Source of the DNA: an uncultured archaeon
GTDB lineage: Archaea; Nanohalarchaeota; Nanosalinia; Nanosalinales; Nanosalinaceae
Direction of reading: 5' to 3'
Assembly: GCA_964421955.1 (NCBI GenBank)
Contig: CAYQYU010000012.1
Location: forward strand, 1 to 30,225
DNA length: 30,225 nucleotides
Shown: in pieces, positions 589 through 22,407 of the stretch
Layout of the letters: the number at the start of each line of letters is the position of its first letter
Position numbering within the stretch: the stretch's first letter is position 1
Notes under the pieces: generated by a model
Databases searched by the model: none
Told to the model about the DNA's origin: nothing
Seen by the model: only the letters and a program-made list of their open reading frames with translations
Made by a program: the position numbers and the translations under genes

Positions 589-716
589 GCACTTCCAACT
601 ACACGGCACCAGCTTGAGCTCTAACATTGAGCTTTCTGCGCAAGCAGATGGCTCATCGCAGGAAATCTTTGATTTCCGAGCTCGGTGGATACGCTGTGGT
701 CGGACCTGTTATACGT

Positions 717-726
717 ACTTTTTCTC
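717..726 (+). terminator. Putative oligo-T terminator of the 23S transcript
   Basis: T-rich tract after the structured rRNA trailer, facing a convergent gene. Confidence 0.4.
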
Positions 727-980
727 TAAAGATTGTACTCTATATCCTTCTCAGGATCTAAATGGGCCAAGAAAACTTCCCATACATCAGGAGCTCCTAT
801 TACAAAGGAAATGACAAATGTTACTGCAGCAATAACAGATATAACATGTCTTGTCACTAACATCTCTCTTTCAATAGTCACTATCAAAGCTTGAACATAT
901 GAGAAAATTAGCAAAGCCCAAGTAAGAAGCGTTTGGATAGCTCCGTTTATTCGTATAGCCTTTATCTGAGACGAGGCCAT
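726..980 (-). CDS. Small hypothetical membrane protein
   Basis: 84 aa, two hydrophobic segments, AT-rich, fills the gap between the rRNA and the methyltransferase. Confidence 0.6.
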   Translation of the reverse strand: MASSQIKAIRINGAIQTLLTWALLIFSYVQALIVTIEREMLVTRHVISVIAAVTFVISFVIGAPDVWEVFLAHLDPEKDIEYNL

Positions 981-1030
981 ACTAGTTCAAAGTCTCTAAA
1001 ACCTTAAACTTCTATCTCTAAATAGCGATC

Positions 1031-1630
1031 ATGCCCCAACCACCTGAAGAGTTCTATTCCAGCATCTCCGAGGAGTTCGCGGAGGAGTATGCGATGGAGA
1101 ATATGCCGCAGGTGTATATCGATCTGCTGGACCGTTTTATCGAGCTTGTCGAGGGCGAGAAAGTTCTGGACGCCGGTTGCGGGCCTGGCCGCGACACGGA
1201 GTACTTCGTGGAGAACGGGCTGGACGCGACAGGGATCGATCTAGGAGAGGACATGATCCGGCACGCGGAGGAGAATAAAAAGGGCCGCTTTAAGTTAATG
1301 GATGTTAAAGATCTAGAGTTTGAAGACGGCGAGTTTGACGGGGTGTGGTCGAACACGCTCGTAAACCTGTTCCCGCCGGAGGAGATGCCAGATGTTGTCT
1401 CCGAGCTGGCCCGGGTCACTAGAAAAAATGGCGTGGTCTACATCAGCTTCAAGATCGGGAAAGGCTCGATCATGCGGGAAGCTTATGGCGGCGAAGTCAA
1501 GCAGTACCGTGTATCCGAGGAGAAGGCGCGGGAAATACTTGAGTCGCAGGGCCTGGAGATCGTCGAGATGAACGTTTCCGAGACCTCGGGCGGCTTCACC
1601 TCGGCAGGTACTTTTTGCAGGAAAAAGTGA
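1031..1630 (+). CDS. Class I SAM-dependent methyltransferase
   Basis: Motif I VLDAGCGPGRD, post-I GIDL, motif II FEDGEFDGVW. Confidence 0.93.
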   Translation: MPQPPEEFYSSISEEFAEEYAMENMPQVYIDLLDRFIELVEGEKVLDAGCGPGRDTEYFVENGLDATGIDLGEDMIRHAEENKKGRFKLMDVKDLEFEDGEFDGVWSNTLVNLFPPEEMPDVVSELARVTRKNGVVYISFKIGKGSIMREAYGGEVKQYRVSEEKAREILESQGLEIVEMNVSETSGGFTSAGTFCRKK

Positions 1631-1659
1631 GAGTTCAGATTAAATGAACAGTCCTAGGG

Positions 1660-1753
1660 TTGAACGAAATTGAACGGCTTCTTTCTGTAGTTAGGCTCTA
1701 TCAAGGCTATATTTAACGCCATTAAACGTTCGTTCACGGAAACGGCATATAAG
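1660..1753 (+). promoter_or_regulatory. Promoter of the 1788 gene with four upstream TTNAACG boxes
   Basis: TTGAACG at 1660 and 1670, TTTAACG at 1712, TTAAACG at 1722; TATA-like CATATAAG at 1746-1753; GGTGA before the ATG. Confidence 0.5.
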
Positions 1754-1787
1754 GCCTGACTCAGAGTTCTCGGATGGTGAATCGAAC

Positions 1788-2372
1788 ATGAGAACCAATC
1801 ACACACTCGCAACAGGATTTATAGTGGCACTACTTGCCACAGGTTTCGCAGCTCCTGCGGCTGCGCAGTCAACAAATGCGCAGGCACACGCAGATGTGGA
1901 GGCATCTGCACAAAGTAATGGACTTTTACAGGCAGTGAACCAGGTACAGGCTCAGCTGGGGAAAGTAAGCCAGCAGCTACAGGATATACAGGAAAGAATT
2001 AGCCGGCTGGAAGCCAAAGTAGAGGCTAACGCCAGCCAGGAAGTAGAAGCAGAGAATGAAGAGGCAAGAGGATCACAGAGAGCAGAAGTCAACCACAGTG
2101 TAGATGTAGAGAACGGTACCAAAACCATTAGACATGAAGTCAGGAAAGACGGAGAGACTCTGGTCAGCTTCGTGAAGCAGATAGTGATTGGTGCTGAAGC
2201 CGATGGGGAGGCAGAAGCTGAGGCTGATACAGAGCACGATGCAGAGGTAGAAGGACAGGAAGATGAGGAAGCAGAAGCTGATGCCGAAGCAGACGGAGAG
2301 GTCGGAAACCAGGGAAAAACAGGGGCAAGAGGCCAAGTAGGCCTTAGAGCCAGTGTCGAAACAGGTAGGTGA
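1788..2372 (+). CDS. Secreted acidic protein with a coiled coil
   Basis: Sec signal peptide (GFIVALLATGFAAPAAA-Q), heptad segment, E/A/D-rich C-terminal half. Confidence 0.8.
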   Translation: MRTNHTLATGFIVALLATGFAAPAAAQSTNAQAHADVEASAQSNGLLQAVNQVQAQLGKVSQQLQDIQERISRLEAKVEANASQEVEAENEEARGSQRAEVNHSVDVENGTKTIRHEVRKDGETLVSFVKQIVIGAEADGEAEAEADTEHDAEVEGQEDEEAEADAEADGEVGNQGKTGARGQVGLRASVETGR

Positions 2373-2584
2373 TCAGGTTGAGAAGCATAGAATTCCGGTG
2401 CCTCAACTGTGGGAACCGTGTGGAGAAGGATCTGATACCCGGGAAGCACACAGTCCTTGGCTCCCTTCCCGTAGTTAACAAGGAAGCCTCTTGCTGTGAA
2501 AACCCTGAATACGAGGACTCGGAAGGATACTTCAGGCCCAGGCAGAAACAGTCCCTGAGGGACCTCCTTCCGGGCCTCGCATAA
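2369..2584 (+). CDS. Small zinc-ribbon-like protein
   Basis: CLNC...CCENP; GTGA overlap with the upstream stop; T-rich tract follows. Confidence 0.65.
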   Translation: MIRLRSIEFRCLNCGNRVEKDLIPGKHTVLGSLPVVNKEASCCENPEYEDSEGYFRPRQKQSLRDLLPGLA

Positions 2585-2651
2585 CTCTTTTTCTTTCAAT
2601 AATGCGCAAAAAACCGTTTAAAACTGATTTTCAAACAACAGGACAGGGAAA

Positions 2652-3410
2652 ATGCGTAAGACAATCTTGATACTGGCTCTCGTAATCTTGACCGGGATGG
2701 TCGCGGCCCAGCCATCCGGGAACTCCGGGCTCGTGAAGCCCGGGTTTGTCCCTGGCGATCTCTTCTATCCCGTGGAGCAAGGTGTAGAAAGACTCGAAGT
2801 CGGGCTCGCCTCCGTCATAGGAGGTCCTGAACTCAGGGCGAAGGTTATGGCGAACAATGCCGAGGAAAGACTATCAGAGGCCCAGGTGCTCATGGAGAGG
2901 AACCGATCGGACAGGGCCGCAAGGATGGTTGAGAAGTATGAGCGGACAATAAACCAGTCCCGGGAAAACGCCCGGAAATCCGGGAACGCCGAGATCGAGG
3001 CCAGGATAGATAATGTCTCAGAGAAACATTTGAAGGTGCTCGAAGACGTGAAAAGAAAGGTTCCGGAACCCGCGAAAGCCGGCATCCAGAGGGCCATCGA
3101 CAACTCGAGGAAGAAGTCACCCTCCACGAGAAAAAATGATCAGAGTCCAGACGAACAGCCCAGATCAGAACCCGGATCACAGGAATTCTCCAGATTCCGT
3201 GGAAAGAAGACAGACAATTCGGATATGACAGAGAACATCACAGAGGAGCTAGAAAGCGAAACCAGCACCTCAGGTGATGGGAGCCAACCGGTTGAGGACA
3301 TCGAGGAATCGGTGACCGGTCAGGCCACTGGGCAGGAGAGAAGACCCGATACCGGGACCTCAGAAAACCCTGGAAACAGTCCTGTTGAAGAGGCTCCTCT
3401 GGAGCCATAG
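2652..3410 (+). CDS. Secreted DUF5667-like helical protein with a disordered acidic tail
   Basis: Signal peptide, then PGFVPGDLFYPVEQGVE, AEERLSEA and HLKVLEDVKRKVPEPAKAGIQRAI, which I recognise as typical of DUF5667. Confidence 0.8.
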   Translation: MRKTILILALVILTGMVAAQPSGNSGLVKPGFVPGDLFYPVEQGVERLEVGLASVIGGPELRAKVMANNAEERLSEAQVLMERNRSDRAARMVEKYERTINQSRENARKSGNAEIEARIDNVSEKHLKVLEDVKRKVPEPAKAGIQRAIDNSRKKSPSTRKNDQSPDEQPRSEPGSQEFSRFRGKKTDNSDMTENITEELESETSTSGDGSQPVEDIEESVTGQATGQERRPDTGTSENPGNSPVEEAPLEP

Positions 3411-3440
3411 GCCTGTATATTTTCCTGTTAAAGGATAGCT

Positions 3441-3821
3441 ATGGCGGCACCCTTTCCAGGAGCGGACTTCGAAGTAGTTATCTATATGCTCCTGGGCGCC
3501 TTCATGACCCTGTCCACGGTATCAGGACTCTACATCAGGAGACTTCACAGTAAAATTGAGGACGTGGTATCCGAGGAAGACGGCCCTGAGCTCAGGACCG
3601 ACAACATCGGCCTCCCAAAGCGGGCAGAGGATTTGATGAACGCGGTAATGGAGGATCCAATGCTGCAGAGCGAGCTACCTGGCGAACTGGAAGTCTCAAA
3701 GGCGACCGTCAGCAACGCGGTTTCAGAGCTGTTCGACCGGAACCTTGTAAAGAAGAAAAAGAAAGCCAACACCTACCTTATAGAGCCGAACCTGGAAGAA
3801 CTGGAGAGACAGCAGCGCTAG
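3441..3821 (+). CDS. Membrane-anchored winged-helix DNA-binding protein
   Basis: N-terminal TM helix; C-terminal LQSELPGELEVSKATVSNAVSELFDRNLV HTH plus wing. Confidence 0.85.
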   Translation: MAAPFPGADFEVVIYMLLGAFMTLSTVSGLYIRRLHSKIEDVVSEEDGPELRTDNIGLPKRAEDLMNAVMEDPMLQSELPGELEVSKATVSNAVSELFDRNLVKKKKKANTYLIEPNLEELERQQR

Positions 3822-4537
3822 ACAGAGTGGCCTGGGCTGAACTCATACTTCCGTTTCATGTGGTCCTCCATGCCGAGCATGTACTCGAGCGAAGGAGGCA
3901 CGTAGTCGAGAACTGTCCCTATGAAACCGCGGTTGACCACTCTCCTTCCCGAGACCTGGAATTCCCTGTCAAGTACCACGGTCTCTCCCCGTTCTTCCAT
4001 ACGGGCCATCAGGTCATGGTCCTCATGGTATGGAAGCTCCTCGTCAAATCCTCCGACCTCCATGAAACTCTGCCTGTCGACAAACAGGAAATTGCCGGCC
4101 GCAACAGGTATGCCCAGGAACCGGACTGGTTTTACCAGCCGGGAACCTATTCCGAGCAAAATCTTGCCCCTGATGTTCGTGTCAAACGTCTTCCATGTGG
4201 AAAAGCCCGCGACCACTTCTTCCTCCTGCATCGCCTCATATACATCGGAAAAAACATTCTCGTGGAGAAGCTCGACGTCAGAGTCTAGGAACAGGATGAT
4301 GTCGCCCTCGGCCTCTCTTGCGCCGTGATTCCTAGCCTGGCCGGGACCGTCATCCTCACTCTCCACCACTTTTACGCCACGCTCACTCGCAAAATCGACG
4401 GTTCCGTCATCACTCCCGCCGTCTTTCAGTATAACCTCGTAGTCTTCAAAATCCTGCATCTCGATGCTGTCAAGTAAACTTCCAATATAGTCTATCTCAT
4501 TCTTCGCCGGTATAACTACAGATATCGCCGTCATCAC
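3818..4537 (-). CDS. Glycosyltransferase family 2
   Basis: ISVVIPAKNE, DGGSDDGT, ARNHGA, FLDSD, GGFDE and HEDHD motifs. Confidence 0.95.
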   Translation of the reverse strand: MMTAISVVIPAKNEIDYIGSLLDSIEMQDFEDYEVILKDGGSDDGTVDFASERGVKVVESEDDGPGQARNHGAREAEGDIILFLDSDVELLHENVFSDVYEAMQEEEVVAGFSTWKTFDTNIRGKILLGIGSRLVKPVRFLGIPVAAGNFLFVDRQSFMEVGGFDEELPYHEDHDLMARMEERGETVVLDREFQVSGRRVVNRGFIGTVLDYVPPSLEYMLGMEDHMKRKYEFSPGHSV

Positions 4538-5877
4538 ATATACCCCAGGTCTTCCAACCTCTTCTTTACCTCCTCATCCTCTTCTCTCTGTTCACCGGGT
4601 TCAACATCGACATCGGATATTTTGTCGACCTCCCGCTTAAATTCTTCCTCGACCTCGATTTCTTCGCCCGACTCAAGGTCGTACATCTTATACGACGTTC
4701 TCCCGTCCTCGGTCTTCGACTTGACTATCTTCTTTCCGTCCTTCTTGACATAGCGGAACTTCCTGTAGTACCTGTCCCAGTCGCTCTCCGGTATCTGGCC
4801 GAGAGACCCTGGTGCATCCGGGAACTCGACGCCTCCACGCACGTACTCTGGGTGAATCTCCTCCGGCTCTTCACCGATACCGGCGTAGTAAGGAACTAGC
4901 TCGGCAAGTTTCCTCAGCTCCACCATCTGCGGCCTTCTATCTGCCTCCCTGCCAGGGCGGTCCACCATCATCACAGTATTTATCACCGGCTCCATCACGT
5001 TGAACTGGTGCCCGAACATTCCCTCTTCTCCAAGCGCCTGCCCATGATCAGATACTATTATCACAACAGTTTCATCTTTCAGACCGTTATCCCTGAGATG
5101 TTCCATCAGGCGGCCTAACACGTCATCAGTGTAGTCTACAGACGCATCGTAGACCCTCCTGAGGTTCTCGAAATCATCTTTGCCTTCAATCACGTCCTTC
5201 TGGCTGTTGGGTATCGAACCGGTATCCTCCAATCCGTGCGCCTCGGAGTATTTTTCAGGAGGATTGTAGGGCTCATGGGGCTCCATGATGTTCATGAAGA
5301 GAAAGAAGCGTTCGTCCTCATCCACGTTATCTATGTATTTCCTCGCCTCAGATACTATTTCCTCGGTCTTGCAGGCGTCGTTGAGGTTGAGAAACTCGAA
5401 GGACCTGTCTACTACCCTGGTAATCGATCTCTTGACGGTGTTGCTCCTGTTGTCAAGGAACTTTGCCGCCATCCGAGAGATTTTGGTCACCAGCACGTTA
5501 TCCGCCTTTCCAAGGAAGTTCTGGACGTAGTCAAAGTCGTCCGTCATGTTCTTGTGCGGCGTGATCCAGGGATTGGTGGTTATACAGGCCGTTCTGTACC
5601 CCTCCTCCTTGAATTTCCGGACAAAGAGCTCCTTCTCTCCCTTGAAGTAGGCTCTCTGGTGGGTGGCGCCGTGCTCCCAGGGATACCTCCCCGTAAACAT
5701 CGATGCATGGGAGGGCAGACTCCAGTTTGCCTGTGCCACCGCGTCTTCAAAAACTATGGATTCATCAGCTATCTCCTGGAGGTTCTCCGTAAAGTCTATA
5801 TCATCATTATAAACCGATAGACGGTCTTTCCTGAGAGAATCCAGAACTATGAAGATCACGTTCTTTTGATCATACAT
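4534..5877 (-). CDS. Sulfatase-like / alkaline phosphatase superfamily enzyme
   Basis: NVIFIVLDSLRKD, WSLPSHASMFTG, EPHEPY, SDHG and the C-terminal RLEDLGY. Confidence 0.92.
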   Translation of the reverse strand: MYDQKNVIFIVLDSLRKDRLSVYNDDIDFTENLQEIADESIVFEDAVAQANWSLPSHASMFTGRYPWEHGATHQRAYFKGEKELFVRKFKEEGYRTACITTNPWITPHKNMTDDFDYVQNFLGKADNVLVTKISRMAAKFLDNRSNTVKRSITRVVDRSFEFLNLNDACKTEEIVSEARKYIDNVDEDERFFLFMNIMEPHEPYNPPEKYSEAHGLEDTGSIPNSQKDVIEGKDDFENLRRVYDASVDYTDDVLGRLMEHLRDNGLKDETVVIIVSDHGQALGEEGMFGHQFNVMEPVINTVMMVDRPGREADRRPQMVELRKLAELVPYYAGIGEEPEEIHPEYVRGGVEFPDAPGSLGQIPESDWDRYYRKFRYVKKDGKKIVKSKTEDGRTSYKMYDLESGEEIEVEEEFKREVDKISDVDVEPGEQREEDEEVKKRLEDLGYM

Positions 5878-5984
5878 CTATATCCTACAGAACAGCGGAT
5901 TCTTTTTAAGCTTATTAACACTAGAACACCGGAATCCCTGCGGCAGGGGCTACAGATAAAAAAATAACCCTTCATAGCCTAAAA

Positions 5985-6479
5985 AGGAGGCGGAGTGGCT
6001 GTCCCCGCTGGCGTTCCGTATCGCCGCATCTCTTGCGAGAAACGGCGGACGCATCCTGACGGATGCTCGACCCCATAGAACCTTGCGGTTCGCTGAGTGA
6101 GGAAAGTCCCGACACCTCGACGGGCAATAAGTTGCCTTTCGTAGAGAAGATCCTTGATCTTCGAAACGTGGCAGGTGCAAGACCTGTGGACCGAGAGGTC
6201 TCAGAGACACGCCTTAACTCGTTTAAAAACGAGGTAGGCGGCTCATTGAGCAGCAGAAACGACACGTCTCCTGTAATGGCCAGGATCACGGTAACGGCGT
6301 CAAAGCCAGCGTCGTGTGGAGCCAGTTCAGGAGGATCGGTGAAACGTGGCTCAGACACGGGGTGCAAGCCGAAGAGCGCAAGCACGCATTTCGAAGAAAT
6401 GCTGGTTTCCAGCAAATCTTCGATTTGCGTCGAGTCAAATGCGGCCATAGAAACAGAATCGGGCTTACTCCCGCCACCT
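5985..6479 (+). ncRNA. rnpB: RNase P RNA (about 495 nt)
   Basis: GAGGAAAGTCCCGA (6099-6112) pairs in P4 with ACAGAATCGGGCTTA (6453-6467); P1 AGGAGGCGGAGT/ACTCCCGCCACCT; P2 TGGCTGT/GCGGCCA; P5 CACCTCG/CGGGGTG; conserved CAGAAAC and TGAAAC. Confidence 0.93.
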
Positions 6480-6515
6480 GAAACACTTTTGAAGATACGC
6501 GACAAGGTTTAGAAC

Positions 6516-6677
6516 ATGGCGAACGACAACCAGGTCCAGATGCCTTCCTCACAGGGAGGACTGGTACAGTACTTTGATGCCGATGCAGGCATGGAGCTAG
6601 ACCCCAAGGTGGTCGTGGGGGGAGTTGTGGGAATCGCGATAATCGAAATGGGTCTGCACATGGGACTCTTCATTTAA
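6516..6677 (+). CDS. secG: Preprotein translocase subunit Sec61beta (53 aa, not in the ORF track)
   Basis: Manual translation MANDNQVQMPSSQGGLVQYFDADAGMELDPKVVVGGVVGIAIIEMGLHMGLFI shows the GLxxYF...LDP plus TM signature. Confidence 0.92.
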   Translation: MANDNQVQMPSSQGGLVQYFDADAGMELDPKVVVGGVVGIAIIEMGLHMGLFI

Positions 6678-6783
6678 CGCAGATTCTCTTAAGAGAAGAA
6701 GGGTTCGAGAAGTGAGCGAACGCGAGCTTCGATGTAGAGTTTATTTAAGAATTCTACTGGCAAACTTTCTCTAGACACCAACT

Positions 6784-6936
6784 GGACCCGTAGCTCAGCC
6801 CGGACAGAGCAACCGGCTTCTACCGAACTTCTGAAAGTTCGATCATCACGAGGCATTCCATGAATGCCTCTGGGTCGGCTTTTAGGGCTCTCGGCAAGAT
6901 ACCGGTAGGTCGAGGGTTCAAATCCCTCCGGGTTCG
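6784..6936 (+). tRNA. tRNA-Arg(TCT) with a 78-nt intron at 37/38 (6823-6900)
   Basis: Acceptor GGACCCG/CGGGTTC, D arm GCTC/GAGC, anticodon stem ACCGG/CCGGT with TCT at 6819-6821, T arm GAGGG-TTCAAAT-CCCTC; relaxed BHB; no encoded CCA; TATA-like TTATTTAA about 6741. Confidence 0.93.
6824..6848 (+). repeat. 25-bp palindromic module, copy 1 (inside the tRNA-Arg intron)
   Basis: CGAACTTCTGAAAGTTCGATCATCA, identical to 20976-21000. Confidence 0.95.
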
Positions 6937-6944
6937 AATCTCCT

Positions 6945-7718: not shown

Positions 7719-7742
7719 AGCTTGAAGCCGGAGAGAAATTAC

Positions 7743-11375: not shown

Positions 11376-12014
11376 ATGCAGCGAATAAAATCCGGAATCC
11401 ACAACTTTGACCGTCTCCTGGGCGGCGGCATACCTGACAGAGAGCTCATACTGGTCAAGGGAGAGCCTGGATGCGGAAAATCCAACCTTGGAATGGAATA
11501 CCTTTACAGGGGCGCCCAGAAAGGAGAGAACGGTCTCTACGTTTCCTTCCAGGATACTGAGCCAGAGATACTCCGGACCACGACATTCGACTGGGACTTC
11601 GGGGAGATGGTCGAGGAAGACACCATCAACATAACCAAGTTCGACCCCTACAGGTACGAGCAGATCGCCAACATGCTTCGTTCAACTGTGAAGGAGAACG
11701 ACGCCACGCGCGTGGTCCTGGACCCTATAACCGATCTCGATCTGTATATTGATTCACGGAAGGACCAGAGGAAGAATCTCCTGAAGATCAAAGAGGAGTT
11801 GAAAGACCTTGGGTGCACAACAATTCTTGTTGCGGAGAAGGAAGAGGCCACAGAGCTGGAGGAGGAGATTGCCGACGGGATTGTGGAGCTTGAACTTCTG
11901 CGGAAAGAGGGCCAGGTCGAACGCCATATACTGGTGAAGAAGCTGAAAGGTTCAGACTATAACCACAGCGTCCATAGCTACATAATCAACAGCGACGGAA
12001 TAAAGATACAATGA
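11376..12014 (+). CDS. KaiC/RAD55-like single-domain RecA-family ATPase
   Basis: RIKSGIHNFDRLLGGGIP, Walker A GEPGCGKS, RVVLD, VKKLKGS. Confidence 0.9.
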   Translation: MQRIKSGIHNFDRLLGGGIPDRELILVKGEPGCGKSNLGMEYLYRGAQKGENGLYVSFQDTEPEILRTTTFDWDFGEMVEEDTINITKFDPYRYEQIANMLRSTVKENDATRVVLDPITDLDLYIDSRKDQRKNLLKIKEELKDLGCTTILVAEKEEATELEEEIADGIVELELLRKEGQVERHILVKKLKGSDYNHSVHSYIINSDGIKIQ

Positions 12015-12118
12015 CGCAAACCAGAGATTTGCTCAGAGCGAAGACCGGGTGGTCTTCTCTAAGCAGAAAACGCTACCTGTTTTCGAGAGACGAAAACACA
12101 TGCGGTGTTTTCGAATGA
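12010..12118 (+). repeat. Four-hairpin insert flanked by AATGA direct repeats, open as a 35-aa mini-ORF (12011-12118)
   Basis: Hairpins at 12016-12032, 12040-12057, 12066-12084 and 12091-12113; AATGA at 12010 and 12114. Confidence 0.75.
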
Positions 12119-13041
12119 GTGAAAGCGATCCTTTCCAGAGTTCTTTCAGGGCCAGGATCAAGAGGGCGATGCAGACAGATAATACCGCTGCAGCAGCCAA
12201 CGCTCTTTTTGGACCCACGGTTGACAGCCACAGCGAGTATTTCGAGGACCTGAAGACCGACATGAAGAAGGCGGGCATGGACGTGCTCTTCAGAACCTAC
12301 GTTTCGAAAATGTTCCTTTACACCATCGTGACCTTCATCCTCGCTATGGTCTCGGGAATTTTCTACACATTCATCAACTCTCCCGCTCCACAGACTGCCT
12401 TGAGACTGATAGTTGGCATGCCCTTCGCGCTCTCGATTCTCGTCCTGGGCGGGATGTACATGTACCCATCACAGGTCGCGAAGAGGAGGGAGAAAAATAT
12501 AGATGAGAACCTGCCGTTTGCGCTGAACCATCTGAGCGCGATCGCGACCTCGGGTATACCGCCAAGCTCGATGTTCCAGCTCCTGCAGGGCTTCAAGGAG
12601 TATGAGGGAATTGCGCAGGAGGCCGGAGAAATTTCCCGCAGAGTCAATGTCTTCGGTGAAGACCTCACCACCGCATTAAGGGAAGTGGCGGAGCGGTCTC
12701 CGAGCGAGGACTGGACCGAAGTGCTGTACGGCATCCTTTCAACAGTTGAAACCGGGGGAAATCTCGACGACTTCCTGAAGGAGCAGGCCGACGAGGCGCT
12801 TTTCGACTACAAGATGGAGCGCGAAAGAGAAATCGAGCGGCTCAGCACTTACGCGTCGTTCTACACCGCAATCCTGATAGCTGCACCGGTTTTCCTGGTA
12901 GTTATACTCGCGGTCATGAACCTGCTTGGCGGCCAGCTAATGGGCTTCGCCATCAGGGATTTGATGTGGCTTGGCGTCCACATAATCATACCTGTCATAA
13001 ACATCCTGTTCATAATATTCCTGACAATCAAGGTGGACTAG
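12115..13041 (+). CDS. Type II secretion system F family (TadC/PilC/FlaJ-like) membrane platform protein
   Basis: IDENLPFALNHLSAIATSG, FGEDLTTAL, ETGGNL, several TMs. ATG 12115 (GGTG 7 nt upstream) preferred over GTG 12049. Confidence 0.92.
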   Translation: MSESDPFQSSFRARIKRAMQTDNTAAAANALFGPTVDSHSEYFEDLKTDMKKAGMDVLFRTYVSKMFLYTIVTFILAMVSGIFYTFINSPAPQTALRLIVGMPFALSILVLGGMYMYPSQVAKRREKNIDENLPFALNHLSAIATSGIPPSSMFQLLQGFKEYEGIAQEAGEISRRVNVFGEDLTTALREVAERSPSEDWTEVLYGILSTVETGGNLDDFLKEQADEALFDYKMEREREIERLSTYASFYTAILIAAPVFLVVILAVMNLLGGQLMGFAIRDLMWLGVHIIIPVINILFIIFLTIKVD

Positions 13042-14722: not shown

Positions 14723-14729
14723 TAAGATA

Positions 14730-15164: not shown

Positions 15165-15202
15165 ACGGAAGAAATGTAAATCTGGAGGCGGCAAATTCTG
15201 AT

Positions 15203-15400: not shown

Positions 15401-15439
15401 CCCGAAGCCATTTTATGGGGCGGCCCAAAACTTCTACCG

Positions 15440-16522: not shown

Positions 16523-16552
16523 AACAGATCCTGGATATTGTCCTGAGTAAAA

Positions 16553-16668
16553 TGGCCGATCCCGGATTTGAACCGGGGACAACTGCATAACTGAACTATG
16601 TTCAGTGAAACGCCGATAGAATCGGCGTGTCTTCAGTGCAGCGCTCTCCCAGGCTGAGCTAATCGGCC
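16553..16668 (-). tRNA. tRNA-Phe(GAA) with a 42-nt intron at 37/38 (16589-16630)
   Basis: Minus strand GGCCGAT/ATCGGCC-A, GCTC/GAGC, CTGCA-CT-GAA-G|intron|A-TGCAG, CCCGG-TTCAAAT-CCGGG; BHB helix CTGA/TCAG. Confidence 0.94.
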
Positions 16669-16968
16669 GTCAAAGTGCTACAGGCTTAATGGAAAAGATG
16701 AGCTTTAAGAATCAATCCTTGACCAACGCATCTTTCCCCCGAAATAAGCCAGAAATAGATTCTAAAGACCTTATAAACAGTTCATAAAAGCCTAAAAACA
16801 TATAGAAGCTTCAATAAAATTCTGATTCTATTTTAAGAGATTAAAAAACTTTTTCATACATTCGAAAACTCTTAAAAACCTTTAGAAAGTGAATTAAACG
16901 ATCTTGAAACTTTATGAAGCCAGAAAACGTTTTTAACAGGCTTGAACTTAGTTGGAACTGGTGAATAG

Positions 16969-17484
16969 ATGAGCTTTCAAGGACAGGATAACAACCACTT
17001 GCCAGATTCAAACTCACGTAACGAAACAACGAGGGTCGAGCAACTGTTTGTACCATCTGGAGTTGTCGTGGATAGATCCCTGGTTGACAGCTACAGCTCA
17101 GAAATCAGGAACTATATTGAAACCAACGATTATGGCGCGGTCAGGTGCGACTTTGAGGAACTCAGCCGGCTGTACCGACAGGAACTAAGAGAGCAGACCA
17201 CAGACTACACCGCAGAATTTGAAAACGAGAAAAGTGTCAAATACAACTTCGGGATGGCGATCGAAAAGGCTGTTACCGAGGAGACCTCGGACCTGATAGG
17301 AAAACCTGATATCGAGCAGATTGTGCGCGAGACTGTTGACAGTGGAGGCTACGACTACCTGAGAGACGACAGCATGAGAACCGTGAAAGAAGGCGCTTAC
17401 AGCTGGAGATACCTTGGCCAGGAACTGGAGAGCATCGCAAACAGGAAGGTGAAACCGGATCAGCCAGACCGCCCCGAGCAATAA
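16969..17484 (+). CDS. Hypothetical protein, paralog of 20325-20816
   Basis: 171 aa; aligns by eye with the 20325 ORF. Confidence 0.75.
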   Translation: MSFQGQDNNHLPDSNSRNETTRVEQLFVPSGVVVDRSLVDSYSSEIRNYIETNDYGAVRCDFEELSRLYRQELREQTTDYTAEFENEKSVKYNFGMAIEKAVTEETSDLIGKPDIEQIVRETVDSGGYDYLRDDSMRTVKEGAYSWRYLGQELESIANRKVKPDQPDRPEQ

Positions 17485-17538
17485 TCGTGGACTCGGGAAA
17501 AGGCTGTAACTATAAATCTTTCTCGACAAATCCAGGAC

Positions 17539-18516
17539 ATGACAGAAGAAACGCGGGACAACGTGATCCCGGGAACGGATAAACCCCACAGCGGGGAAGA
17601 GGTCGAGGGCTACAGTTTCGACAAGGAGTTCTCCCTCAATGATCTGATAGACAGTTACAGGACCACGGGTTTCCAGGCCACCCACCTGGCGGAGGCCGTC
17701 GATATAGTCAAGGAGATGCAGGAAGAGGACGCCAAGATTTTCCTCACCTTCACCTCGAACATCGTCTCCTCCGGTCTAAGGGAAGCGGTAACCTACCTTG
17801 CGAAAGAGAACCTGGTCGACGTTATGATCACCACCTCCGGATCGGTTACAGAGGACGTTATCAAGACGTTCCACCCGTTCAAGATGGGAGAATGGGACGC
17901 GGATGAAAAGGCGTTGCGGGACCAGGGAATCAACCGGCTCGGCAACATCTACGTTGAAAGCGATGCCTACGTGAAACTCGAGGAGTATCTAACCGGGGAT
18001 TTCTTCCCTGACTTCTTCGAGGAGAAAAAGTTGAGGACGCCGACAGAAGTCGCGAGAGAACTTGGTAGGGATTTGGACGACGAGGACTCGTTCCTGACGC
18101 ACGCCGCAAGAAACGGGATACCTGTCTTCTGCCCCGCGCTGATCGACGCGGAGATAGGAGACTTCCTTTTCTACTACCGGCAGGAAGAAGATCCTGAAAT
18201 AGGGATCGAGACTCTCGATGACTGGGATTCGCTGATCAAAGAATCGATAGAGGCAGAGAAGACCGGCATCATCTGTGTGGGTGCAGGGGTCCCAAAGCAC
18301 CAGGCCATAATGAGCAACCTTTTCCGGGGTGGCGCCGACTACGCGGTCTATCTCTCGACAGGCATGGAAGGCGACGGCTCTCTCTCCGGTGCGCCTCCAA
18401 AAGAGGCAGTTTCCTGGGGAAAGATCAAGCAGAGCCGGAAGAACTATACACAGGTTGAGGCAGAGGCCACGCTCGTGTTTCCGCTGCTGGTTGAGGCCGC
18501 TTTCAGGCAATGCTAG
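17539..18516 (+). CDS. dys: Deoxyhypusine synthase
   Basis: TGFQATHL, TSNIVSSGLRE, GINRLGNI, DGSLSGA..EAVSWGK with the catalytic Lys. Confidence 0.96.
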   Translation: MTEETRDNVIPGTDKPHSGEEVEGYSFDKEFSLNDLIDSYRTTGFQATHLAEAVDIVKEMQEEDAKIFLTFTSNIVSSGLREAVTYLAKENLVDVMITTSGSVTEDVIKTFHPFKMGEWDADEKALRDQGINRLGNIYVESDAYVKLEEYLTGDFFPDFFEEKKLRTPTEVARELGRDLDDEDSFLTHAARNGIPVFCPALIDAEIGDFLFYYRQEEDPEIGIETLDDWDSLIKESIEAEKTGIICVGAGVPKHQAIMSNLFRGGADYAVYLSTGMEGDGSLSGAPPKEAVSWGKIKQSRKNYTQVEAEATLVFPLLVEAAFRQC

Positions 18517-18872
18517 TTGAGTTTTGTGAGCTTGTCTCTGACCTGGTCAAGAGGGGCCGCAAGGTTCTTCGATTCCAGGGTACTCATCGGAACCCACTGG
18601 CAGTTCTGTGGGCTTCCCTCGACTTCGACCCGGTAAGGCTGCCAGACAAACTCTTCTCCTTTAGCCTCAAAGGTCTTCTTCAGTTTTCGCTTGTACCTCA
18701 CGGTTACGGAGTCGCAGCCGGTAATCTCGGTAGTAACTCTTTCAGCCGCATCTGCGCTTAATTCGCCTTTCTGCCTCACTCCGCTGGGTACGTTCCAGAC
18801 CTGGTTTTCCTCATTGAACATCATAAGAATTTTCTTGCCCCGAACCACGAGGCCTCCAGAAATCTCGTCCAT
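18513..18872 (-). CDS. Nudix-fold protein with a degenerate Nudix box
   Basis: WNVPSGVRQKGELSADAAERVTTEITG, plus CQWVP. Confidence 0.75.
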   Translation of the reverse strand: MDEISGGLVVRGKKILMMFNEENQVWNVPSGVRQKGELSADAAERVTTEITGCDSVTVRYKRKLKKTFEAKGEEFVWQPYRVEVEGSPQNCQWVPMSTLESKNLAAPLDQVRDKLTKLN

Positions 18873-18955
18873 AGCAGTAATTTCGTGGCGACACGTTTAA
18901 AGCAAGTTAATTAAGGACTTAACTCGGGAAACCCCAAGATTGAGTGTGGCGAAAA

Positions 18956-19777
18956 ATGGAATACATCGAACTCCAGGGAGAAAAGGTGCCGGGACTTGGT
19001 TTCGGCACCTGGCAGCTGAAGGGGCAAGAATGCTACAGGAGCGTGCAGGACGCGCTTACAATCGGCTACAGACATATTGACACGGCCCAAGCCTACGGAA
19101 ATGAGGCCCGGGTAGGACAGGCAATAGAGGACTCAGAAGTCTCGAGAGACGAAATCTGGCTGACCACCAAGCTCTGGAGGGACAACCTTAACCGGCGGAA
19201 CCTGAAGAGGTCCATGAATGAAAGTCTGGAAAAGCTCCGGACCGATTACGTCGATCTATTGCTGATCCACTGGCCCTTCCCGGGGATGGATCTTGAGGCC
19301 GTCCTGGAAGAAATGTCGGAAATCGTGGAGGAGGGAAAGGCAAGGAACATAGGTATAAGCAACTTCACCCCTGAACAGATAGATGAGGCCACGAGTCTTT
19401 CAGAAAAGCCACTACTGACCGACCAGGTCGAGTACCACCCTTTCCTGGACCAGAGCGAGGTTCTTGAAAAATGCCGTGAAAGAGACATGATGCTGACCGC
19501 CTATTCTCCTGTCGCGAGAGGGAGCGTGATCGGTAACAAGGTGCTGGAGAGTATAGGCTCGAACTACGGAAAGACTGAGGCACAGGTCGCACTCCGGTGG
19601 TTAATTCAACAGAAGAACGTCGCGGCGATACCCAAGGCCGCGTCCCAAGAACACAGAGAGGCCAACTTCGATATCTTCGATTTCAAGCTAACAGAGGATG
19701 AAATGAAGGATATCAAGAAACTGACATCGAGAAACGACAGGAAGGTAAACCCTGGTTTCGGGCCCGACTGGGGCTGA
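18956..19777 (+). CDS. Aldo/keto reductase
   Basis: LGFGTW, GYRHIDTAQAY, TTKLW, DLLLIHWP, IGISNF, AYSP, IPKA. Confidence 0.96.
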   Translation: MEYIELQGEKVPGLGFGTWQLKGQECYRSVQDALTIGYRHIDTAQAYGNEARVGQAIEDSEVSRDEIWLTTKLWRDNLNRRNLKRSMNESLEKLRTDYVDLLLIHWPFPGMDLEAVLEEMSEIVEEGKARNIGISNFTPEQIDEATSLSEKPLLTDQVEYHPFLDQSEVLEKCRERDMMLTAYSPVARGSVIGNKVLESIGSNYGKTEAQVALRWLIQQKNVAAIPKAASQEHREANFDIFDFKLTEDEMKDIKKLTSRNDRKVNPGFGPDWG

Positions 19778-19793
19778 AAGTCAAGAAAAATTA

Positions 19794-19937
19794 TTAATCA
19801 GATATATCCTCGTATTTCTCGGCTTTATCCATCAGTTCTTCGATTACACCGGAAAAGCTCTGTCCTGGACTCTTTTTTTCCTTCAGCTTCTCGTATATGC
19901 GGTCCTTAATCCCGATGTTGGTCGTATATTTCCCCAT
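19794..19937 (-). CDS. Small RHH DNA-binding protein (VapB-like antitoxin type), 47 aa, not in the ORF track
   Basis: Manual translation MGKYTTNIGIKDRIYEKLKEKKSPGQSFSGVIEELMDKAEKYEDISD matches the TIxIxxxxYxxL..K..xSFSxVIxxL pattern. Confidence 0.82.
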   Translation of the reverse strand: MGKYTTNIGIKDRIYEKLKEKKSPGQSFSGVIEELMDKAEKYEDISD

Positions 19938-19983
19938 ACCGATTATTTCTATCATTAACTAAATAATTCCTTCCCACAGACAG

Positions 19984-20013
19984 TTATAAATGTACACAAA
20001 GAATTGTGTGCAT
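19984..20013 (+). promoter_or_regulatory. Histone promoter TATA box with an adjacent inverted repeat
   Basis: TTATAAA at 19984-19990; ATGTACACAA-agaa-TTGTGTGCAT at 19990-20013. Confidence 0.6.
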
Positions 20014-20024
20014 GGGTGTTTTAG

Positions 20025-20222
20025 GTGGAATTTTCAACGCTGGCAATGAGAAAGATTATCAAGAGCCAAACGGGCAAAAGAATCTCTGACGCGGGAGCAC
20101 AGGAGCTTGGCGACGTCCTGGAAAGGTTCGCCGGCGACATCGCAGAGGAAGCCATAGCCGTCGCCAGGGACGACGGCAGGAAGACCGTTAGAGCCGAAGA
20201 CATCAAGAAGGCACTGTCCTAG
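20025..20222 (+). CDS. Archaeal histone (HMf-like)
   Basis: 65 aa, colinear with HMfB; R19 and GRKTVRAEDI (R52-T54-D59); GTG start. Confidence 0.93.
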   Translation: MEFSTLAMRKIIKSQTGKRISDAGAQELGDVLERFAGDIAEEAIAVARDDGRKTVRAEDIKKALS

Positions 20223-20324
20223 AACCATTCCAGCATCAGCTACTATTCCTGAACAGCACCTTAGCACATAACTACAACACCCTATAATAATTCTCGGCTT
20301 CTCCAATATGACTGGCCCATCATT

Positions 20325-20816
20325 ATGAGTCTAGCCGATAAATTCAGATCCCTGAGATCCCTCGAATTCCGAAAAACCCCTGGAAACTACCAAATAGGAG
20401 AAAGAGATCTTAACAGTTTTTCCGAGTACAACAAAGGCTCTGCAAAGATAGTGGCGGATTCAAGATTTATTGAGAGCTATATCTCACAGATAGAACCCCA
20501 TATAGAAACAGGAGACTATGAAAAAGTAAGCTTTGACAGCGCCAAATTGAACTCCCTGTACCACCAGGCGAAAAACAGCCAGGTACACGATCACCCAGGA
20601 AGCTTCGATGTGGGATACAGCGTGGACTACAGCTTCGGTGTCGCGCTCGGGAAGGCTGCCAACAGCGGACCAGGGCTGGTAGATAACCAGGAACTGCTCC
20701 AGGCTGTCAACAGGATACATCGGTACCGCCCGGCCATGTACCATTCCGGAAGCGCCAAGATGATGAAAGACGGTGCCATCGAATGGGAGCAGGTTATAGA
20801 GGAACTGGGAGAATAA
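20325..20816 (+). CDS. Hypothetical protein, paralog of 16969-17484
   Basis: 163 aa; shares SY..I..IET.DY..V.D...L..LY.Q and SV.Y.FG.A..KA. Confidence 0.75.
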   Translation: MSLADKFRSLRSLEFRKTPGNYQIGERDLNSFSEYNKGSAKIVADSRFIESYISQIEPHIETGDYEKVSFDSAKLNSLYHQAKNSQVHDHPGSFDVGYSVDYSFGVALGKAANSGPGLVDNQELLQAVNRIHRYRPAMYHSGSAKMMKDGAIEWEQVIEELGE

Positions 20817-20819
20817 GAG

Positions 20820-20973
20820 CGCCCAGGGCAGGGCTCGAACCTGCGACCACCACGTGTCTGCACCTTTTTTCTCGGCGTCAGCCGAGCACCGGTGGAACCG
20901 GCGATTGCGTGCCGCACTGAGCGTAACCAGGCGGTTTAACAGCGTGGCGCTCTACCTGCTGAGCTACCTGGGC
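20820..20973 (-). tRNA. tRNA-Asn(GTT) with an 81-nt intron at 37/38 (20856-20936)
   Basis: Minus strand GCCCAGG/CCTGGGC-G, CCACG-CT-GTT-A|intron|A-CGTGG, GCAGG-TTCGAGC-CCTGC; canonical BHB (CTGT/GCAG helix, ACC/GGT outer helix). Confidence 0.94.
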
Positions 20974-20975
20974 AA

Positions 20976-21000
20976 CGAACTTCTGAAAGTTCGATCATCA
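20976..21000 (+). repeat. 25-bp palindromic module, copy 2 (immediately upstream of tRNA-Asn)
   Basis: Identical to 6824-6848. Confidence 0.95.
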
Positions 21001-21095
21001 TACAGGGCTCCAGTGGATGCCAGAACCCTGACTGTAGTTTAGTGGTCGCTAACTATTTTTTTAAACATGAACTAAAAATGAAAGAAGATTTGAGG

Positions 21096-21195
21096 CCGGT
21101 TAGCCCTACGAAGAAACTGAAAAGTTGCTTCTTGAGAGCAGCTTCCTTGCAGAAGCTGCGTCTGGGCTACCCGGGCATTACTTAGCGGAGCGTAA
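21096..21195. repeat. Intergenic composite hairpin element
   Basis: TAGCCC/GGGCTA (21101-21169) encloses hairpins 21110-21131 and GCAGCTTC-cttgca-GAAGCTGC (21138-21159). Confidence 0.6.
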
Positions 21196-21200
21196 CACGC

Positions 21201-22331
21201 CTAGTCGAGGAACTCTTCGTTCTCGATTTTCGTCGGCAGGTACTCGTTGGCCACGAACTCGAGTGACTGCGAGGCGAGGGCCTGCTGCTCGACCCTTACG
21301 CCCATGTCGAGCATCTTCTGGAGCTGGTCCTGCCACTGCTTGGTCTGCATCCACTCGTACTCCATGACGTCTCTCGCCCTTTTGTAGTCCTTCGTCGGGC
21401 CGCCGTTATCTTCTGGCTTGCCCTTCAGGTTCTCGGTGACGTGGTGGAGGTCGTACTCGTCGATGTCCTCCATTGTCATGCCTACAAGTCGTGCGTCCGG
21501 AGTTGCGAGACGGTCGGACTGGAACGCCAGCGACATTGATCCCGACTTCAGCACTGAGTAGATGTAGTAACCCCATGGGTCGCCGTCCGTGAAGACGTAG
21601 ACAGGTAGATCAAGGCGCTCGTGCATGATGTTGATCAGCCTTCTCGCACCTCTCGCTGGCTGTCCTTTTGTACCGACGATGATCGCGTTGTGCTCCTTGT
21701 GGAAATCTTCTTCAACCAGCCTGTTGACCATCGCGTTGGTCTCCACGACAAGGATAAAATCGGCGTCGCATTCCACGAACTCATAGTGGTCGACGATCGA
21801 CGGGATGTTGAGCCCAGAAGTTCCCATCTCCATGCAGTCGATCTCGTCTCCGGAGTCGTTGATGACGACAGGTCCAAACAGCGATCCTTTCGCCTCCGCG
21901 ATCAGGTGGAGGTCTTCACGGATCGCGCCCGTGGCGGTTTCAATATCGACGATGACAGGATCAGATTCGTCCTGGTCCTCGAAAGTGTTCTCGTCGAGTC
22001 CCGGGACAGTATGCTTCAGCTGGTAGTACAGCTCTCTGATCGATGCTGTACGCCCTTCTTCCACGAACTGCTTTGCCTTCGATGCAACAAGCATCGTCTG
22101 CATGAACTTCCTAGCGTGAGATATGTTGAGGAACTTCCTCGACGAGTAGTTGTCCCCCAGCATCAGCCGTTCCTCGTCTTCGTCGTACTCTACATTCGAC
22201 TGGGAGCGGACCTTGGTCTCTATCTCAAGGTTATCCGACTCCGGATCCTCTAGCTGCTTCCTTATCTTCCTTCCCAGGTTTTTCAGCCTGTCAACTGTCT
22301 GCTCATCGTTCTCAAAGTCTTTCTTTGGCAC
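21201..22331 (-). CDS. top6A: DNA topoisomerase VI subunit A
   Basis: IRELYY (catalytic Tyr), FEDQDESD, ILVVET, KGQP, FTDGDPWG, EQQAL. Confidence 0.97.
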   Translation of the reverse strand: MPKKDFENDEQTVDRLKNLGRKIRKQLEDPESDNLEIETKVRSQSNVEYDEDEERLMLGDNYSSRKFLNISHARKFMQTMLVASKAKQFVEEGRTASIRELYYQLKHTVPGLDENTFEDQDESDPVIVDIETATGAIREDLHLIAEAKGSLFGPVVINDSGDEIDCMEMGTSGLNIPSIVDHYEFVECDADFILVVETNAMVNRLVEEDFHKEHNAIIVGTKGQPARGARRLINIMHERLDLPVYVFTDGDPWGYYIYSVLKSGSMSLAFQSDRLATPDARLVGMTMEDIDEYDLHHVTENLKGKPEDNGGPTKDYKRARDVMEYEWMQTKQWQDQLQKMLDMGVRVEQQALASQSLEFVANEYLPTKIENEEFLD

Positions 22332-22407
22332 TCAGAAATCACCTCTGTGATTTTCTGTGTCAAGAAGATCTCTGATCTTCGTCTGCTTCTTCATTTTTCA
22401 ATCACCT
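22332..22407 (-). repeat. Two-hairpin insert with a 20-aa mini-ORF (22394-22332), bounded by AGGTGATT direct repeats
   Basis: Hairpins at 22364-22380 and 22336-22353; AATCACCT on + at 22337 and 22400. Confidence 0.7.

Follow-up and report, generated by a model that had tools for sequence, protein, structure and literature searches.

Probable hairpin-built DNA insertion cassettes in tRNA genes, RNase P RNA and operon junctions of Nanohaloarchaeota

Introduction

Why should tRNA introns, an RNase P RNA, an rRNA trailer and the junctions between protein genes all carry chains of the same kind of short hairpin? The question is raised by contig CAYQYU010000012.1, a 30,225-nt stretch of nanohaloarchaeal DNA with strongly acidic predicted proteins. 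This stretch, referred to here as the window, is the entire contig C12 of G000, a 922,649-nt, 27-contig genome that is 98.8% complete. An earlier reading of the window (the original prediction) listed eleven such stretches and proposed a non-autonomous DNA family, akin to repetitive extragenic palindromes (REPs), miniature transposable elements with inverted repeats (MITEs) or Rickettsia palindromic elements (RPEs), that persists where it is spliced out, tolerated in an RNA or translated through. We find multicopy families of hairpin modules, an ordered architecture, flanking duplications, orthologous sites that are empty in some relatives and filled in others, and open reading frames (ORFs) of very small size, here called mini-ORFs, running through the copies at gene junctions. 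On balance we favor, with a probability of about 0.6, the interpretation that the modules make up several families of small DNA insertion cassettes, non-autonomous, built of hairpins and endemic to the Nanohaloarchaeota, a MITE/RPE-like family of a new variety. The earlier observation is partly confirmed.

How introns arrive in archaeal tRNA genes is still regarded as an open question (PMC4090602; also a preprint on Asgard tRNA introns, 10.64898/2026.10.13.758758). The archaeal MITEs listed in PMC10969869 come from Sulfolobus, Halobacterium, Haloquadratum, Desulfurococcus and a few others, and the main text of that source never mentions "tRNA". Full-text literature searches, with supplementary files outside their scope, gave no description of hairpin repeats or tRNA-intron modules in Nanohaloarchaeota; nor were elements of this kind met for that group in PMC3293823, PMC4090602, PMC5829648, PMC10969869 or the Asgard preprint.

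Results

Hairpin modules form multicopy families with a fixed order

The terminus (family A) is a hairpin of the form (TGAT)GATC-RAACTn-loop-nAGTTY. G000 contains 19 strict copies, and a looser pattern yields 21 matches compared with 2 for a reversed-pattern control. Its commonest form is the 25-mer that the original prediction had reported at both 6824 and 20976. This identity is exact, and the genome holds four exact copies together with about eight degenerate ones in which the stems are compensated, for example CAAACTT/AAGTTTG and GAAACTT/AAGTTTC. Fifteen of the strict termini come within 0-2 nt of tRNA sequence. Six adjoin the 5' end of a tRNA and six a copied tRNA 3' fragment; one lies at the start of exon 2, and two, inverted, lie at an exon end or tRNA fragment. 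The other four of the 19 are located at or near mRNA starts. Module D, stem-TGGTTACGCTCAG-stem-CACGCAA, forms the 5' end of the introns in tRNA-Asn, tRNA-Arg(GCG) and tRNA-Thr(GGT), and it also stands at the start of elements that follow tRNA-Ser(CGA), precede tRNA-Gly(TCC) or occupy a junction of protein genes on contig C4. Family B comprises hairpins clamped by GAA...TTC. These are found in the introns and trailers of tRNAs, in RNase P RNA, in the rRNA trailer and at operon junctions; 43 of 296 hairpins in non-ORF DNA begin with GAA, and the family B sequence GAAAATCNNNGATTTTC occurs 11 times in G000 and not once in the reversed control. Module C, CTCAAGTTCTCC-loop-GGAGAACGAGG, is confined to introns, with five copies in G000 and two in G016, and is absent from the other 29 of the 31 genomes (G000 included) that were taken into the pattern searches. 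A further hairpin, AAGGCATTC-nnn-GAATGCCTT, mostly adjoins a terminus. The hairpin modules match no Rfam family at E<=0.5.

Typical composite copies follow a fixed order: a left end, which is either an inverted terminus or module D, then at least one variable hairpin, then a right terminus. Three copies with this build measure 77-90 nt. The element of the tRNA-iMet trailer has inverted ends, and the 25-mer occurs both ways at exon borders; in some composites the TGGTTACGCTCAG module replaces the inverted terminus as left end. Modules may also be nested: tRNA-Thr(GGT) has B hairpins within module D, as does the tRNA-Asn intron of the relative L055. A tandem array with a 111-nt unit occupies C8:1-300 (loci L003 and L004) and continues from the end of C18 (13980-14044). 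Its unit runs from a right terminus hairpin through a core of 21 nt, similar to the 3' end of a tRNA, to a left hairpin and two more hairpins; the array begins after a copy of the 3' part of tRNA-Arg(TCG), and it breaks the assembly.

As the original prediction had described, all eleven listed stretches form chained hairpins, with z values of -1.8 to -6.2 against 200 dinucleotide shuffles each, and for seven of them no shuffle reached the observed fold. About 92% of G000 is covered by ORFs, defined here by a greedy longest-ORF proxy, so that RNA genes fall into the 75,245 nt of non-ORF DNA. Perfect hairpins (stem of at least 7 bp, loop of 3-8 nt) number 110 in non-ORF DNA, compared with a mean of 26.2 (standard deviation 5.3, maximum 37) in 50 shuffles, and 9 in the non-ORF DNA of the window, compared with a mean of 1.1 and a maximum of 4 in 200 shuffles. 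Genome-wide there are 429, and 281-316 across five shuffles. The densities of 1.54/kb in non-ORF and 0.37/kb in ORF-proxy DNA place the excess in the former.

Sharing of sequence among the listed stretches is real but limited. Five of the eleven have copies elsewhere in the 0.92-Mb genome at E<0.01, the threshold used for matches outside the locus, and six (610-700, 5980-6100, 6100-6180, 12000-12125, 16580-16640 and 21085-21200) have none; many hairpins are therefore unique in sequence and alike only in architecture. The GAAGATC..GATCTTC stem is indeed common to 6146 and 22364, and 22362-22383 is identical, 22/22, to part of a tRNA intron on another contig. Of the proposed GCAAA..GATTTGC pair, the hairpin at 6412 (GCAAATC/GATTTGC) has relatives elsewhere, and the one at 12016 is of the same type with one stem mismatch. 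At 6843 and 20995 the TCATC linker belongs to the 25-mer; at 653 it is only a 5-mer.

Probable insertions are flanked by target duplications and orthologous sites may be empty

A target duplication is seen on contig C4, where a 77-nt D-hairpin-terminus element lies between two genes that we take to be those of the DNA polymerase D subunits DP1 and DP2 (the naming is inference only). Each side of the element has its own copy of the end of DP1 (five codons and the stop) and of the start region (17/18 nt), and the empty junction in relatives reads ...GAGGTGAAnnAnTTCTGATG. At this junction G037 has an insertion of its own, independent of that on C4, with the same terminus end and an 18/18-nt repeat; the congener of G037, G010, is empty. 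Within single genera, G041 is filled and G016 empty, and G042 is filled and G017 empty; both states occur within genera g11, g17 and g18. In L077, L079, L084 and other loci of relatives, one uninterrupted frame of 1630-2162 codons takes in both the 1151-aa gene and the gene upstream of it, which could represent a fusion or a stop-free junction.

Comparable repeats are found beside tRNA genes. The tRNA-iMet gene is followed by an element about 85 nt long whose termini are inverted, after which the final 22 nt of the tRNA appear again in degenerate form. The same pattern, with tRNA-3'-end repeats of 19-23 nt flanking mini-elements, is seen at tRNA-Lys(CTT), tRNA-Ser(TGA), tRNA-Ser(CGA) and tRNA-Arg(CCT). 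At least five tRNAs have copies of their 3' ends 40-100 nt downstream. At tRNA-Asn it is the 5' end that is repeated, with 14/16 nt matching. In a test for flanking repeats, 5 of 18 termini outscored all of about 300 control positions. Taken with the 17/18 and 18/18 repeats above, these data provide the target-site duplications by which a MITE is recognized.

Orthologues without insertions, which the original prediction had proposed to look for, exist at four loci: tRNA-Arg(TCT), the topoisomerase VI (Topo VI) junction, tRNA-Asn and the DP1/DP2 junction. Among 33 relatives the Topo VI B/A junction is bare (stop-GGTGAT-n5-ATG) in 13 and filled in 10, where a hairpin is followed by a second Shine-Dalgarno (SD) sequence and start; the filled stems are GAAGATC, GAAAATG, GCAAATC or GAAAATC. 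On the Topo VI A tree, filled and empty states are interspersed, and they are opposed in the well-supported sister pairs L037 (filled) and L038 (empty), and L050 (filled) and L053 (empty), as well as in the pair L045 (filled) and L046 (empty), which has 88/94 support. Because the filled spacers are alike, repeated precise loss of an old insertion is as likely as repeated gain. A single low-depth metagenome contig (depth 2.4), in which 12 nt replace the junction, gives a weak hint of an empty site. One of the loci compared, L061 (JBLGBK010000001.1), is titled as a metagenome-assembled genome of "Colwellia polaris"; its Topo VI A is 80% identical and nests among the Nanohaloarchaea, and the label is probably wrong.

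tRNA introns share modules with tRNA flanks

With introns allowed, ARAGORN reports 40 tRNA genes in G000, a few of them doubtful, of which 28 bear introns of 42-190 nt. Three of these genes, with introns of 42-81 nt, are in the window, where the default ARAGORN setting finds no tRNA. The intervening sequence at position 37/38 is confirmed by ARAGORN with introns allowed and by Rfam tRNA matches, and a bulge-helix-bulge motif at the splice sites was judged by eye for tRNA-Asn, tRNA-Thr and tRNA-Lys only. The contexts assigned in the original prediction, namely the 23S rRNA 3' end (1-595), RNase P RNA (about 5986-6480) and three intron-bearing tRNAs, were right. Coordinates are collected in Table 1.

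The tRNA-Asn gene lies downstream of Topo VI A, whose sequence gives a measure of distance. It is intronless in L037 (Topo VI A 94% identical), L045, L046 and L057, and its intron is a different one in L038 (also 94% identical) and in seven other relatives; among genomes with Topo VI A 80-94% identical the intron is absent, present or replaced. In L037 the leader terminus is retained with a compensated stem, CCAACTT/AAGTTGG, and leader hairpins adjoin position +1 of the tRNA in several families. Of the 13 tRNA-Arg(TCT) orthologues, 3 lack an intron. G007 shares the intron of G000, its stem compensated (GACCTT/AAGGTC), the introns of G010 and G016 are built of C and B modules, and those of the remaining orthologues are unrelated. 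The tRNA-Phe intron has no sequence copy elsewhere in the genome at E<0.01. Metagenome joints that skip the three tRNA introns of the window (85% likeness) were left unused, since their sides measure 20-34 nt and probably derive from the tRNAs of other organisms.

Other tRNA genes of G000 deserve brief mention. That for tRNA-Glu(CTC) apparently has an intron in the D-loop region, mis-parsed by ARAGORN, and the introns of tRNA-Trp and elongator tRNA-Met contain C/D-box-like GATGA/CTGA strings. Two tRNA-Glu genes (C2:72350-72460 and C15:11730-11975) have near-identical trailers of about 70 nt preceding hairpin elements, which suggests that tRNA-Glu and its flank were segmentally duplicated.

Table 1. 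Features of the window (C12 positions) and, where a contig is named, of the rest of G000
Feature	Position	Strand	Details
23S rRNA 3' trailer hairpins	635..677	+	TCTGC-gcaa-GCAGA 635-648; GGAAATC-ttt-GATTTCC 661-677; enclosed by trailer stem CTTGAGCTC...GAGCTCGG
RNase P RNA with hairpin inserts	5986..6480	+	53 bits (Rfam cut-off 84 bits); inserts 6022-6091, 6123-6162 (including GAAGATC-ctt-GATCTTC 6146-6162) and 43-nt palindromic trio 6386-6428
tRNA-Arg(TCT)	6784..6936	+	78-nt intron 6823-6900
tRNA-Arg(TCT) intron start	6824-6848	+	left terminus hairpin + ATCATCA
tRNA-Arg(TCT) intron, second hairpin	6850-6870	+	GAGGCATTC-cat-GAATGCCTC
KaiC-like/T2SSF-like junction cassette	12011..12118	+	35-codon mini-ORF, ATGA overlap at both ends; hairpins 12016-12032, 12040-12057, 12091-12113
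tRNA-Phe intron	16589..16630	-	two hairpins, 16590-16606 and 16610-16628
tRNA-Asn intron	20856..20936	-	stem-TGGTTACGCTCAG-stem-CACGCAA, TGGTTACGCTCAG at 20917-20929; then two hairpins 20871-20901
Right terminus	20976..21000	-	TGATGATCGAACTTTCAGAAGTTCG; ends 2 nt before tRNA-Asn 5' end
Rest of element upstream of tRNA-Asn	21001..21200	-	hairpin 21005-21032; TATA-like TTTAAAAAAA; branched hairpin structure 21096-21195; degenerate tRNA 5'-end copy (14/16 nt) 181 nt before terminus
Topo VI B/A junction cassette	22332..22394	-	20-codon mini-ORF from relic start codon; GAAGATC-aga-GATCTTC 22364-22380; SD-sequestering hairpin 22336-22353
tRNA-Glu(CTC) region	C2:72458-72600		
tRNA-Trp region	C2:49960-50136		
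Elongator tRNA-Met region	C6:15456-15630		
Tyrosine-recombinase genes/fragments	C6:62655-63986; C7:2063-3196; C7:121-654; C2:58775-59032		

Junction copies lie in mini-ORFs that may be translated through

The idea that copies persist by being translated through is supported by the operon junctions. At co-directional junctions the cassette starts at or just past a relic start codon, and in all nine junction cassettes examined a mini-ORF of 12-35 codons passes through the hairpins. These junctions are Topo VI B/A, KaiC-like/T2SSF-like, S14/S8, S8/L6, S5/L30, DP1/DP2, C3:24361, C1:110138 and L32e/L19e, and they were selected after the pattern had been noticed. In eight of the nine the stop overlaps the next start or lies within 8 nt of it (ATGA, TAATG, GTGA, TGAGTG); at Topo VI B/A the stop adjoins the Topo VI A start, and at L32e/L19e it falls 18 nt short. 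A tenth case, on contig C9, follows the same pattern. When the interiors were shuffled, an equally good ORF arose with P between 0.007 and 0.07 in six cases; two further controls were uninformative because the retained end is itself the stop. The second junction hairpin mostly encloses the SD sequence. Most junctions carry no hairpin: one of at least 6 bp was present at 46 of the 240 surveyed. Insertion in frame within a host protein, as in Rickettsia, was not encountered at the junctions, where each copy is a separate mini-ORF with its own stop (the interiors of long ORFs lay outside this survey).

RNase P RNA and the 23S rRNA trailer

The RNase P RNA of the window aligns to the Rfam model with insertions of 105 nt and 40 nt, and its score falls below the cut-off because of these large inserts. 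Related RNAs are compact (254-274 nt) in families f3 and f5 and measure 306-484 nt in family f1, whose inserts bring its members below the Rfam gathering score, so that standard annotation would miss them. The palindromic trio is common to G000, G002 and G010, which represent three genera, and GA|GAA..TTC|GA hairpins with differing stems occupy two positions of the RNA in other genera. Of the 23S trailer hairpins, both are missing in G017, and G009 has only the one with the GCAA loop. The order 23S rRNA, RNase P RNA, tRNA-Arg(TCT) is kept throughout the order (loci L011-L029). The 23S rRNA of G009 (L028:1-187) gives a weak match to a group I intron (RF00028), which at 38 bits is under the cut-off.

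Conservation, covariation and orientation

Further copies of the modules, which the original prediction had proposed to count, occur genome-wide and beyond: the exact GAAAATC hairpin is present in 23 and the terminus in 22 of the 31 genomes, with controls at 0-1. Compensatory changes are seen in four of the seven stem pairs, and 99% of the cells are paired. This figure is biased upward because hairpin form was part of the basis on which rows were picked, which does not apply to the seven orthologous Topo VI rows.

The claim that modules occur in both orientations also holds. When tRNA introns, RNase P RNA and the rRNA trailer are compared with mRNA junctions, 9 of the 11 best matches are antisense, including identities of 26/26 and 23/24, and a separately found antisense match between a stable RNA and a junction is 22/22. 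Loops are pyrimidine-rich in 10 of 11 copies in stable RNAs and in 2 of 9 in mRNA junctions, where 7 of 9 are purine-rich (Fisher P 0.0045, from a small tally). Because the excised intron hairpins are exact antisense copies of hairpins in the junction mini-ORFs, they could act in trans on translation at the junctions.

Two motif assignments were rejected. Some GAA..TTC hairpins have GA...GA flanks, as a kink-turn (K-turn) bound by L7Ae would, but on inspection there is no bulge or C stem. For the TGATGA/CTGA features, a C/D-box or H/ACA small RNA is, on inspection, unfit by box order and strand, and there is no Rfam match at E<=0.5. A K-turn-like motif, CC-GAU-GA...GA-GG, does lie in the 5' untranslated region of the L7Ae gene itself (L074:1400-1480, contig C6), where it takes in the SD sequence; it fits the autoregulation of L7Ae reported for other archaea.

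Discussion

Taken as a whole, the multiple copies, the empty sites and the target duplications support the inference of a non-autonomous REP/MITE/RPE-like element, with the amendment that there are several ordered modules and not one family. Set beside MITEs and RPEs, the cassettes stand out in four ways: target duplications that are both long and variable, a hairpin interior maintained through compensatory change, ends that fall at the boundaries of tRNA processing, and survival as coupled mini-ORFs. We infer insertion at the DNA level by a staggered cut, loss by way of the repeats, and stems that are retained because the element or its transcript must fold. An insertion would duplicate 13-23 bp of its target, and in a genome that is about 92% ORF, copies would survive only where the duplication spares both neighbors and the insert is harmless. 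Such places would be within or beside tRNA genes, where the insert can be spliced or trimmed away; the peripheral helices of RNase P RNA; the rRNA trailer; and the stop/start junctions of operons, where a translated mini-ORF would pass ribosomes on to the next gene. Later, copies would be lost precisely, probably by recombination between the duplicated flanks.

Several observations weigh against insertion of this kind. Direct repeats are detectable at only about 7 of 18 termini, their length is variable (13-23 bp), unlike that produced by most transposases, and the fit of termini to mature tRNA ends is closer than would be expected from simple survivorship. Exact hairpin sequences of 17-20 nt recur across families of the order, and at orthologous sites the stems vary by compensatory pairs. 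These compensatory changes argue for long-term selection on structure, and the conservation looks older than a recent MITE burst. The tRNA introns are without target duplication, and by inspection their 3' ends are complementary to the anticodon loop. Since these ends are complementary and not duplicated, the introns may pre-exist and merely be colonized. That short introns are already present and the cassettes colonize them is the cautious view; that cassettes create tRNA introns is possible.

To these points must be added the search for a mobilizing enzyme. The original prediction saw none in the window and proposed a search for HUH-type or other transposases. PF01797 has no match in G000 at E<=0.01, which agrees with the absence of a HUH transposase of the REP-associated tyrosine transposase (RAYT) type, and a control search detected this family in 6 of 14 reference genomes. 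Besides Y1/HUH (PF01797), the families RVT_1 (PF00078), Cas1 (PF01867), rve (PF00665) and DDE_3 (PF13358) gave no match in this nearly complete genome, and the TnpB-like PF07282 gave a weak match only. PF01609 identifies a single IS4-like fragment at a contig end with no informative or matching ends, and it has relatives in just 3 of 61 genomes. Four Phage_integrase (tyrosine-recombinase) matches are present in G000, three of them adjoining tRNA genes; this tRNA-linked integrase family is unmatched in the element-rich G003, G006, G010 and G013 and is matched in the element-free G015. The distribution of neither the IS4-like fragment nor the tyrosine integrases follows that of the elements. Exact copies of the 3' ends of tRNA-Gly(TCC) and tRNA-Pro(TGG) were seen on other contigs (C21:264 and C14:23003), as integrated elements would give. 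No autonomous element with matching ends and no trans-acting transposase was found, a result that rests on seven Pfam families and two proteins and not on an exhaustive screen. If the cassettes insert without any recognizable transposase, relying on housekeeping enzymes or on an intermediate made of structured RNA or of single-stranded DNA, and make their 13-23-bp duplications at tRNA boundaries and stop/start junctions, they would provide a live example of the creation and exchange of archaeal tRNA introns and leaders; we put this forward only tentatively.

It may be asked whether the hairpins are functional RNA modules (protein or nuclease sites, stability elements, devices for translational coupling) that have spread by duplication and selection. 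The recurrence of GAAAATC-NNN-GATTTTC and the terminus in 22-23 of the 31 genomes, the compensatory changes in four of seven pairs, the bias in loop orientation between stable RNAs and mRNA junctions, and the positions of leader hairpins at tRNA +1, of junction hairpins around the SD and of mini-ORFs that meet stops and starts would all be expected if this were so. On the other hand, the modules are dispensable, given the empty Topo VI and DP1/DP2 junctions and the intronless or leaderless tRNA-Asn and tRNA-Arg of sister genomes; the insertions bear target duplications; the same module is sense in tRNA introns and antisense in mRNAs; there is no Rfam counterpart; and the 3-nt bulge and C stem of this genome's canonical K-turn are missing, on inspection, from most GAA..TTC modules. 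We consider purely functional modules unlikely. The many empty sites in particular weaken the reading as functional motifs, and a structural role and mobility may both be true.

The tRNA-linked copies might instead be debris of tyrosine integrases, that is attL/attR sites and decayed arms, with the other hairpins unrelated. This accords with the location of three of the four integrase matches beside tRNA genes, with the 3'-end copies downstream of at least five tRNAs and those of tRNA-Gly(TCC) and tRNA-Pro(TGG) on other contigs, and with the 111-nt array, which alternates element and a 21-nt tRNA-3'-like core. Nevertheless, the repeat at DP1/DP2 is locus-specific coding sequence, not borne by the element, and the insert there is the same composite that accompanies tRNAs. 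Termini also occur at tRNA 5' ends and intron borders, and the integrase family is distributed independently of element load, so that such an origin appears improbable. Base composition or chance, with no common origin, could be invoked for the 6 of 11 listed stretches without a copy at E<0.01; it is hardly credible in view of 110 hairpins against 26±5 in shuffles, of reversed controls at 0-2 against 11-21 real matches, and of the 22-26-nt identities that connect distant loci.

Several features meet in this lineage: the same modules in the introns and at the ends of tRNAs, within RNase P RNA and at gene junctions, empty and filled sites in congeneric genomes, and visible duplications. Comparative genomics can therefore follow directly how intron content is gained, exchanged and lost, and experiments could do so in the few nanohaloarchaeal co-cultures under cultivation. 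The junction copies also suggest how selfish DNA may persist in a genome of about 1 Mb that is 92% ORF, in that the mini-ORF would keep ribosomes moving. There is a practical consequence for annotation, since inserts push RNase P RNA under the Rfam cut-off and the default ARAGORN setting misses the tRNAs of the window.

How do the cassettes compare with known systems? REPs and the mosaic elements built from them (BIMEs) are short extragenic palindromes, often clustered, that affect mRNA stability and are mobilized by RAYT (HUH) transposases. The cassettes differ in sequence, no Y1/HUH gene was found in G000, and REPs are not known to have 17-23-bp target duplications. IS4 elements of the IS1634/IS1549 type produce long, variable direct repeats, as the cassettes do, but the IS4-like gene of G000 is a lone fragment with no matching ends in view. 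In their conserved ends and variable palindromic middle the cassettes resemble the attC sites of integrons, by analogy only.

The MITEs described in PMC10969869, such as the Correia elements of Neisseria, are likewise short, multicopy and non-coding, with target repeats and presence/absence variation, and they too can carry a promoter, alter transcripts and nest. They have inverted ends, which some of the cassettes may share. The cassettes differ from them in their long and variable 13-23-bp repeats, their interchangeable covarying hairpins, their ends at tRNA or exon boundaries and the failure of our search to find a transposase. The RPEs of Rickettsia, according to the same source, are also palindromic and selfish, inhabit a reduced genome, survive by being translated and have no known transposase; they insert in frame and join the host protein, whereas the junction cassettes are intergenic mini-ORFs. 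Unlike RPEs as presented there, the cassettes are found in RNase P RNA and in the introns and flanks of tRNAs as well. The closest parallels among tRNA genes are the intron transposition of Thermoproteales (Fujishima 2010, as reported in PMC4090602), in which similar introns are found in unrelated tRNAs, and the tRNA-disruption model for Caldiarchaeum (PMC3293823), in which tRNA fragments lie beside inserted mobile DNA. In both, as here, intron gain at the DNA level has been proposed. Unlike the Thermoproteales introns described in PMC4090602, the shared units here are hairpins smaller than an intron and occur outside tRNAs as well, and where the Caldiarchaeum element (PMC3293823) is 1.8 kb long and encodes a recombinase, the inserts here are 40-190 nt with no recombinase gene. 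In contrast to both cases, as these sources present them, target duplications are visible here.

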